Shown: positions 63,379 to 63,967 of the stretch, piece after piece
Numbering within the stretch: the first letter of the stretch is position 1
Layout: each line of letters begins with the position of its first letter
NCBI RefSeq assembly: GCF_055900595.2
Contig: NZ_CM148325.1
Direction: 5' to 3' (one strand)
DNA length: 64,000 bases
The notes under the pieces: generated by a model
The model's database searches: none
The model's input: the letters and a program-made list of their open reading frames with translations, nothing else
Told to the model about the DNA's origin: nothing
Position numbers and translations under genes: made by a program

Positions 63379-63409
63379 AATGTTACCGATAACAGTTACC
63401 CGTAACATT
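63379..63409. promoter_or_regulatory. tandem GntR operator half-sites in the gntK promoter
   Basis: ATGTTACCGATAACAGTTACCCGTAACAT: two overlapping palindromic elements upstream of gntK. Confidence 0.7.
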
Positions 63410-63439
63410 TTCTGATTCTTGTATTGTGGGGGCACCACT

Positions 63440-63967
63440 TTGAGCACGACTAACCATGATCACCACATTTACGTCTTGATGGGCGTATCGGGCAGCGGCA
63501 AATCTGCAGTCGCCAGTGAAGTGGCGCATCAACTTCATGCCGCGTTTCTTGATGGCGATTTCCTCCATCCGCGCTGCAATATCGAAAAAATGGCGTCTGG
63601 CGAACCGCTGAACGACGACGATCGCAAACCGTGGTTACAGGCGCTTAACGACGCCGCGTTTGCCATGCAGCGCACCAATAAAGTGTCGCTGATCGTCTGT
63701 TCTGCACTGAAAAAGCACTATCGCGACCTGCTGCGTGAAGGTAATCCGAATCTCTCTTTCATCTACCTGAAAGGCGATTTTGATGTAATTGAAAGCCGTC
63801 TGAAAGCGCGCAAAGGCCATTTCTTTAAAACCCAAATGCTGGTGACGCAGTTTGAAACGCTGCAGGAGCCGGGTGCGGACGAAACCGATGTACTGGTGGT
63901 GGATATCGATCAACCGCTGGAAGGTGTTGTGGCAAGCACCATTGAGGTTATTAATAAAGGCAAATAA
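63440..63967 (+). CDS. gntK: thermoresistant gluconokinase GntK
   Basis: Walker A GVSGSGKS. TTG at 63440 reproduces the 175-aa protein starting MSTTNHDHH (from memory); the track ORF begins 21 nt upstream, also at a TTG. Confidence 0.85.
   Translation: MSTTNHDHHIYVLMGVSGSGKSAVASEVAHQLHAAFLDGDFLHPRCNIEKMASGEPLNDDDRKPWLQALNDAAFAMQRTNKVSLIVCSALKKHYRDLLREGNPNLSFIYLKGDFDVIESRLKARKGHFFKTQMLVTQFETLQEPGADETDVLVVDIDQPLEGVVASTIEVINKGK

Follow-up and report, generated by a model that had tools for sequence, protein, structure and literature searches.

Introduction

Where does translation of the gluconokinase gene gntK begin, and what is the role of the two interlocked palindromes that lie just before it? 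The frame of this gene opens on TTG codons, two of which are candidate starts, and the palindromes resemble operators of GntR, the repressor encoded by the preceding gene. The answer that we propose, at a probability of roughly 93%, is that the region comprises the promoter, operator, and translation start of gntKU, where a weak CRP-aided promoter would be repressed by GntR and translation would initiate at TTG 63440.

The gntR-gntK-gntU locus

The window, that is, the whole 64,000-nucleotide stretch of DNA that was analysed, ends in the yhhW-gntR-gntK-gntU region of Escherichia coli, which occupies its last 3 kb according to the open reading frame list and the RefSeq annotation. The genes that frame the region of interest are the following.

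62305 to 63300, + strand: gntR, LacI-family gluconate repressor, 331 aa (open reading frame, NCBIfam, RefSeq).
63440 to 63967, + strand: gntK, gluconokinase, 175 aa, with a TTG start and a TAA stop at 63965-63967 (RefSeq WP_000108321.1, same coordinates).
63971 to 64000, + strand: 5′ end of gntU, GTG start, truncated by the window edge (RefSeq).

GntR scored 776 bits against the NCBIfam equivalog NF011563, 'gluconate operon transcriptional repressor GntR' (cut-off 433). GntK scored 374.6 bits against NF008583 (cut-off 265), with residues 1-174 on profile positions 1-174, and it aligned over residues 1-175 with PDB entry 1KNQ (E = 1.7e-113, two residue differences). Compared with the PDB/K-12 sequence, the GntK of the window carries the substitutions R46C and K172N. 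The GTG of gntU at 63971 follows three bases past the gntK stop codon, and with the TTG of gntK this means that both genes of the gntKU operon have non-ATG starts. When a 751-base segment spanning the region of interest was compared with complete E. coli genomes, 5,424 of 5,426 gave a match, most of them at 96-97% identity and a single strain at 100%. At the gntK locus the lineage is a rare one, with identities of at least 99% in just 18-19 of the 5,424 genomes.

For comparison across species, we used the gntK loci of 80 other Enterobacteriaceae species, partly picked by the N-terminal peptide pattern TNHDHHIY, which introduces a mild bias toward a conserved N-terminus. One sequence labelled Chryseobacterium sp. 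18061 (CACSKA010000004.1) carries an enterobacterial gntK locus, whose 25-nt leader, first 12 codons, and in-frame upstream codon pattern agree exactly with those of Citrobacter sp. 18056, a genome that belongs to the same project; mislabelling or contamination of this assembly is probable.

Overlapping GntR operators upstream of gntK

Two operator-like elements lie between gntR and gntK.

63380 to 63395, unstranded: GntR operator 1, ATGTTACCGATAACAG, core TGTTACCGATAACA at 63381-63394, centre 63387.5; the sole perfect motif match in the window.
63393 to 63408, unstranded: GntR operator 2, CAGTTACCCGTAACAT, core AGTTACCCGTAACA at 63394-63407, centre 63400.5; a one-mismatch match and direct repeat of the first.

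Together they make up a 29-mer, ATGTTACCGATAACAGTTACCCGTAACAT, which occurs a single time in the window. A preliminary description of this DNA had reported the 29-mer at 63381..63409 and read it as two overlapping palindromic operator-like elements about 30 bp upstream of the gntK start. The sequence is indeed present, at coordinates one base lower (63380-63408), and its end lies 31 nt before TTG 63440, in agreement with the distance given. The reading as overlapping operators is likewise upheld by the motif matches, the conservation in 80 species, and the recurrence of the motif at gntT and edd that are described below.

The operator cores are 14-bp palindromes offset by 13 bp from centre to centre, and a single base belongs to both. 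The 29-mer contains two 13-nt direct repeats at 13-nt spacing and can at the same time be read as an inverted repeat whose 18-nt arms are 83% complementary. A search of the 64 kb for the core motif TGTTACCNNTAACA with up to one mismatch returned just these two overlapping positions, as 3 strand-matches against 0.18 expected. When scored against TGTTAC-N2-GTAACA, site 1 has no mismatch and site 2 has one. The same motif was found at other gluconate genes of K-12. Upstream of gntT there are two sites with one mismatch each (locus 6385-6398 and 6526-6539), 141 bp apart, the distal of which adjoins the gntT ribosome-binding region, just before it. Two sites with one mismatch each are also associated with edd, ∼220 bp apart, one upstream and the other inside the coding sequence, where the palindrome TGTTACGCGTAACA (locus 3579-3592) falls within the first nine edd codons. 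This recurrence at gntT and edd identifies the motif as that of the gluconate regulon.

Across the comparison set, the 29-mer is near-invariant in 80 of 80 species at a distance of 18 to 151 nt from the start codon. Among its positions 1-28, 25 are invariant in the 80 loci and two of the other three are altered in a single locus; operator 1, shared base 63394 aside, is invariant in 79 of the 80. The operator pair is thus among the most conserved non-coding sequence of the locus, with the shared central base alone free to vary. At that base, the fifteenth of the 29-mer, the 81 sequences (the 80 loci and the window) divide into 50 with A and 31 with T, and either choice improves one palindrome and worsens the other. 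The last base of the 29-mer (63408) is T in the Escherichia group alone (6/81, window included) and A in most other genera. The leader between operator and gntK measures 72-85 nt in 11 loci (Klebsiella, Raoultella, and relatives), 151 nt in Buttiauxella noackiae, and 18-43 nt elsewhere.

These observations support the assignment of the 29-mer as a putative overlapping operator pair for the LacI-family GntR encoded directly upstream, with binding itself taken from the literature. Ravcheev 2014 (PMC4052901), citing Tsunedomi 2003a, describes the GntR sites of E. coli gntKU as overlapping at a distance of ∼13 bp and as demonstrated to be functional, and takes this pair to illustrate LacI-family sites that overlap at a 13-bp offset. 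According to the same paper, the contact zones of LacI-type dimers at this distance overlap and the dimers 'cannot interact', a special binding mode is proposed, and the binding geometry at gntKU is hard to square with known structures.

This argument gives weight to a different reading, in which the 29-mer is one composite site that GntR occupies in a non-canonical mode, either in mutually exclusive registers or as a higher-order complex on distorted DNA. The 13-bp offset with a shared core base, the symmetry of the whole element as an 18-nt-arm palindrome, and the split between A and T at the shared base, each favouring one register, would all suit such a site. However, the published work, as cited in PMC4052901, treats two functional GntR sites, and a 13-bp offset corresponds to different helix faces, so that both dimers may bind. 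The A/T toggle at 63394 fits selection acting on both registers and does not settle the binding mode. We regard a single composite site as unlikely, albeit the most serious of the alternatives. If true, a non-canonical GntR reading, with registers tuned by the central A/T, would explain the recurrent 13-bp peak among LacI-family sites reported in PMC4052901. Our preferred reading continues to be that of two overlapping operators.

A putative CRP-aided promoter

Three further conserved blocks precede or abut the operators.

63310 to 63325, unstranded: CRP-like site TTTGA-N6-TCACA, centre 63317.5, putative activator site (conserved block TTTGAagTAGcTCACA, 80 species).
63353 to 63358, + strand: putative −35 hexamer TTGCTT (conserved ATTGCTT; three of the six consensus bases matched; 17-bp spacer to the −10).
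63376 to 63381, + strand: putative −10 hexamer GACAAT, with a two-base overlap with operator 1 (GAcAAT fused to the operator, 80 species).

With the 80 loci anchored on the palindrome, the CRP-like, −35, and −10 blocks are conserved without gaps. From their positions, transcription would start near 63388, which would put the operator centres near +1 and +13 and the centre of the CRP-like site ∼70.5 bp upstream of the start. A consensus promoter and terminator scan reported no + strand promoter and no terminator-like site; the putative promoter was missed because its hexamers match just 3 and 4 of the six consensus bases. A promoter this weak fits with CRP dependence. PMC2230225, which cites Peekhaus and Conway 1998, states that the gnt genes are under activation by CRP and that the binding of GntR (at gntT) is inhibited by gluconate.

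The region also contains AGCTCACA as an exact direct repeat of 8 nt, at 63300-63307 and 63318-63325. One copy begins on the final base of the gntR stop codon, and the other coincides with the right half of the CRP-like site. Such a repeat is specific to the lineage, since the other E. coli compared have AGCCCACA or AGCCTACA in place of the first copy.

The start codon of gntK

The features that bear on the translation start are as follows.

63413 to 63415, + strand: in-frame TGA stop, the upstream bound of the gntK frame (from the sequence; TAA in most other E. coli).
63419 to 63421, + strand: upstream in-frame TTG, the start of the longest open reading frame, judged not to be the biological start (no Shine-Dalgarno pairing, poor conservation).
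63428 to 63432, + strand: Shine-Dalgarno-like GGGGG with a 7-nt spacer to TTG 63440 (conservation, 16S pairing).

The preliminary description placed the start of gntK at TTG 63440, as the codon that opens the frame with the GntK N-terminus MSTTNHDHH, and noted that the listed open reading frame begins at another TTG 21 nt upstream. Both statements can be read directly from the sequence, where TTG 63440-63442 opens the frame LSTTNHDHHIYV... and the longer frame starts at TTG 63419-63421. The accompanying remark that there is no in-frame ATG nearby is accurate for the upstream side; downstream there is one at 63479-63481, 39 nt from TTG 63440, as codon 14 and the Met of YVLMGVSG. The choice of TTG 63440 itself gains support from the RefSeq annotation, codon conservation in 80 species, codon periodicity, and Shine-Dalgarno pairing, each of which is taken up below.

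In RefSeq, the gntK coding sequence starts at the equivalent of 63440 in six of six sampled genomes, namely the identical strain and five diverse E. coli (a K-12 derivative, ATCC 25922, O157:H7, and two others). The NCBIfam gluconokinase equivalog places profile position 1 on GntK residue 1. In 1KNQ and five further PDB entries, the gluconate kinase chain starts with MSTTNHDHH at codon 63440; being the sequence of a deposited construct, it does not independently establish the native N-terminus. A GntK entry was looked for in the TRAINSPOTTER N-terminomics supplements and none was present, and a full-text literature search for 'gntK' with 'TTG' gave nothing relevant.

Within E. coli the two TTG codons cannot be told apart by conservation, since the intervening 21 nt are invariant there, and the comparison across 80 species was therefore used. 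The codon homologous to TTG 63440 is TTG in 76 of the 80 species and ATG in the other four (two Buttiauxella, Yokenella, and Trabulsiella); GTG is never found. In a conservation profile based on entropy from −21 to +62, three-nucleotide periodicity begins exactly at TTG 63440. Downstream of this codon, codon positions 1 and 2 are near-invariant and position 3 is variable. Upstream, the periodicity is absent and what is conserved is an RGGRR purine block at −11 to −8 and a C at −2. Purines alone occur at −11 to −8, and the predicted duplex with the 3′ end of the 16S rRNA amounts to −8.4 kcal/mol before 63440 versus −2.6 kcal/mol before 63419. At the level of single bases, the C at −2 (63438), which lies outside the Shine-Dalgarno block, and the G at −10 (63430) are invariant in 80 of 80 species, and T occupies −1 in 63 of them.

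These data also bear on whether the longer form is real, that is, whether translation starts at TTG 63419 and yields a 182-aa GntK with an MYCGGTT extension (MYCGGTTLSTTN...), as the main product or a second isoform. In its favour, TTG 63419 is the earliest start-type codon downstream of the in-frame stop, lies within the predicted transcript, is invariant in the sampled E. coli, and has an in-frame counterpart at −21 in 15 of the 80 species. However, it lacks Shine-Dalgarno pairing, it is missing from the remaining 65 species, and 36 of the 80 have no in-frame start-type codon at all between the preceding stop and the gntK start. The TTGTA block homologous to it is found at −22, −21, or −20 and hence in all three frames across species. 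The upstream segment shows no codon-periodic conservation, and RefSeq uses TTG 63419 in none of the six sampled genomes. We thus consider a start at TTG 63419 very improbable. A minor longer isoform confined to Escherichia, where the 21-nt stretch separating the TTGs does not vary (as sampled for E. coli), is likewise unlikely.

Taken together, the comparative and annotation evidence provides strong indirect proof that gntK starts at TTG 63440, and on the same evidence TTG 63419 is a mere product of longest-ORF choice. Longest-ORF calling extends gntK seven codons too far, and the standard annotation (TTG, 175 aa) is right. The retention of TTG in ∼95% of species, with ATG as its sole replacement, suggests that modest kinase translation has been selected for; a weak TTG start may be favoured, perhaps limiting kinase output.

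The gntK leader

The leader was folded from the predicted transcription start at 63388. Of 200 shuffled sequences, 198 folded more strongly than the leader (z = +1.9), and the initiation region is therefore open and accessible. This result bears on an alternative in which the palindrome would work not as a DNA operator but at the RNA level, forming a hairpin in the gntK leader that serves as attenuator or stability element. Its 18-nt arms with 83% complementarity would permit such a structure. However, transcription from the predicted start, which falls within the left arm, would leave half of the hairpin out of the transcript, and what is transcribed folds worse than the shuffled controls. 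The scan found no terminator-like site, the element is essentially invariant and offers nothing compensatory, and the motif is present as single sites at gntT and edd. An RNA hairpin is thus scarcely tenable, and operator DNA is the favoured interpretation of the palindrome.

Least credible of all is a start at ATG 63479 with the TTG codons as leader. In its favour, no other ATG lies in frame close to the 5′ end of the gene. Such a start is excluded by the coding-type conservation of codons 1-13 (positions 1 and 2 near-invariant in 80 species), by the inclusion of residues 1-13 in the NCBIfam equivalog and the PDB chain, and by the loss, in a protein starting at Met14, of the strand leading into the P-loop GVSGSGKS. 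The ATG 63479 start, the hairpin or attenuator, and a true 182-aa form were all rejected on the conservation, folding, and Shine-Dalgarno evidence.

Proposed mechanism

In the mechanism that we favour, the weak sigma-70 promoter (TTGCTT at 63353-58 and GACAAT at 63376-81) probably initiates near 63388, and cAMP-CRP bound to TTTGA-N6-TCACA (63310-25) would aid it. GntR on both palindromes, where binding is known from the literature, would extend from the edge of the −10 hexamer across the start point into the transcribed region, of which it would cover the first ∼20 bases. As expected from published work, bound GntR would block RNA polymerase when gluconate is absent, and gluconate would free GntR. 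The ribosome would then start gntK at TTG 63440, guided by GGGGG and an unstructured leader, to give the 175-aa MSTTNHDHH... protein. TTG 63419, the first start-type codon past the in-frame stop, would not serve as the main start.

Comparison with known systems

The gntKU control region with its overlapping operators and TTG start is textbook material and already known. There is little new biology in it; the 13-bp-offset binding geometry poses a small structural question for LacI-family repressors.

The closest known relative is gntKU of K-12 (Izu 1997 and Tsunedomi 2003a, cited in PMC4052901), which has the same gene order, gntR-gntK-gntU. The 29-mer, −35, −10, CRP-like site, Shine-Dalgarno block, and TTG of the K-12 derivative are all identical to those of the window, and the 13-bp centre spacing agrees with the gntKU description in PMC4052901. 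The window differs from K-12 at just a few leader and intergenic bases, none of them in the operators or the start. An extra C together with an A-to-G change in the leader (63410-63416) makes the in-frame stop TGA, where K-12 has TAA, and further small changes are located at 63303, 63343, and 63362-63364.

The operators of gntT and edd have the same half-site motif, TGTTAC-N2-GTAACA. In contrast to these, where the paired sites are spaced apart, the overlapping tandem arrangement is found at gntK alone. Like other TTG starts of E. coli genes, the TTG of gntK is read as the initiator Met and is preceded at normal spacing by a Shine-Dalgarno block, and it is interchangeable with ATG in relatives; it differs from them in that TTG is unusually persistent (76/80) and GTG is absent. 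Finally, the locus resembles the class of LacI-family sites at 13 bp defined by Ravcheev 2014 (PMC4052901) in having two palindromes of one regulator that are conserved in orthologous regulons. From that class, as the paper presents it, there is no difference, gntKU being its worked example.
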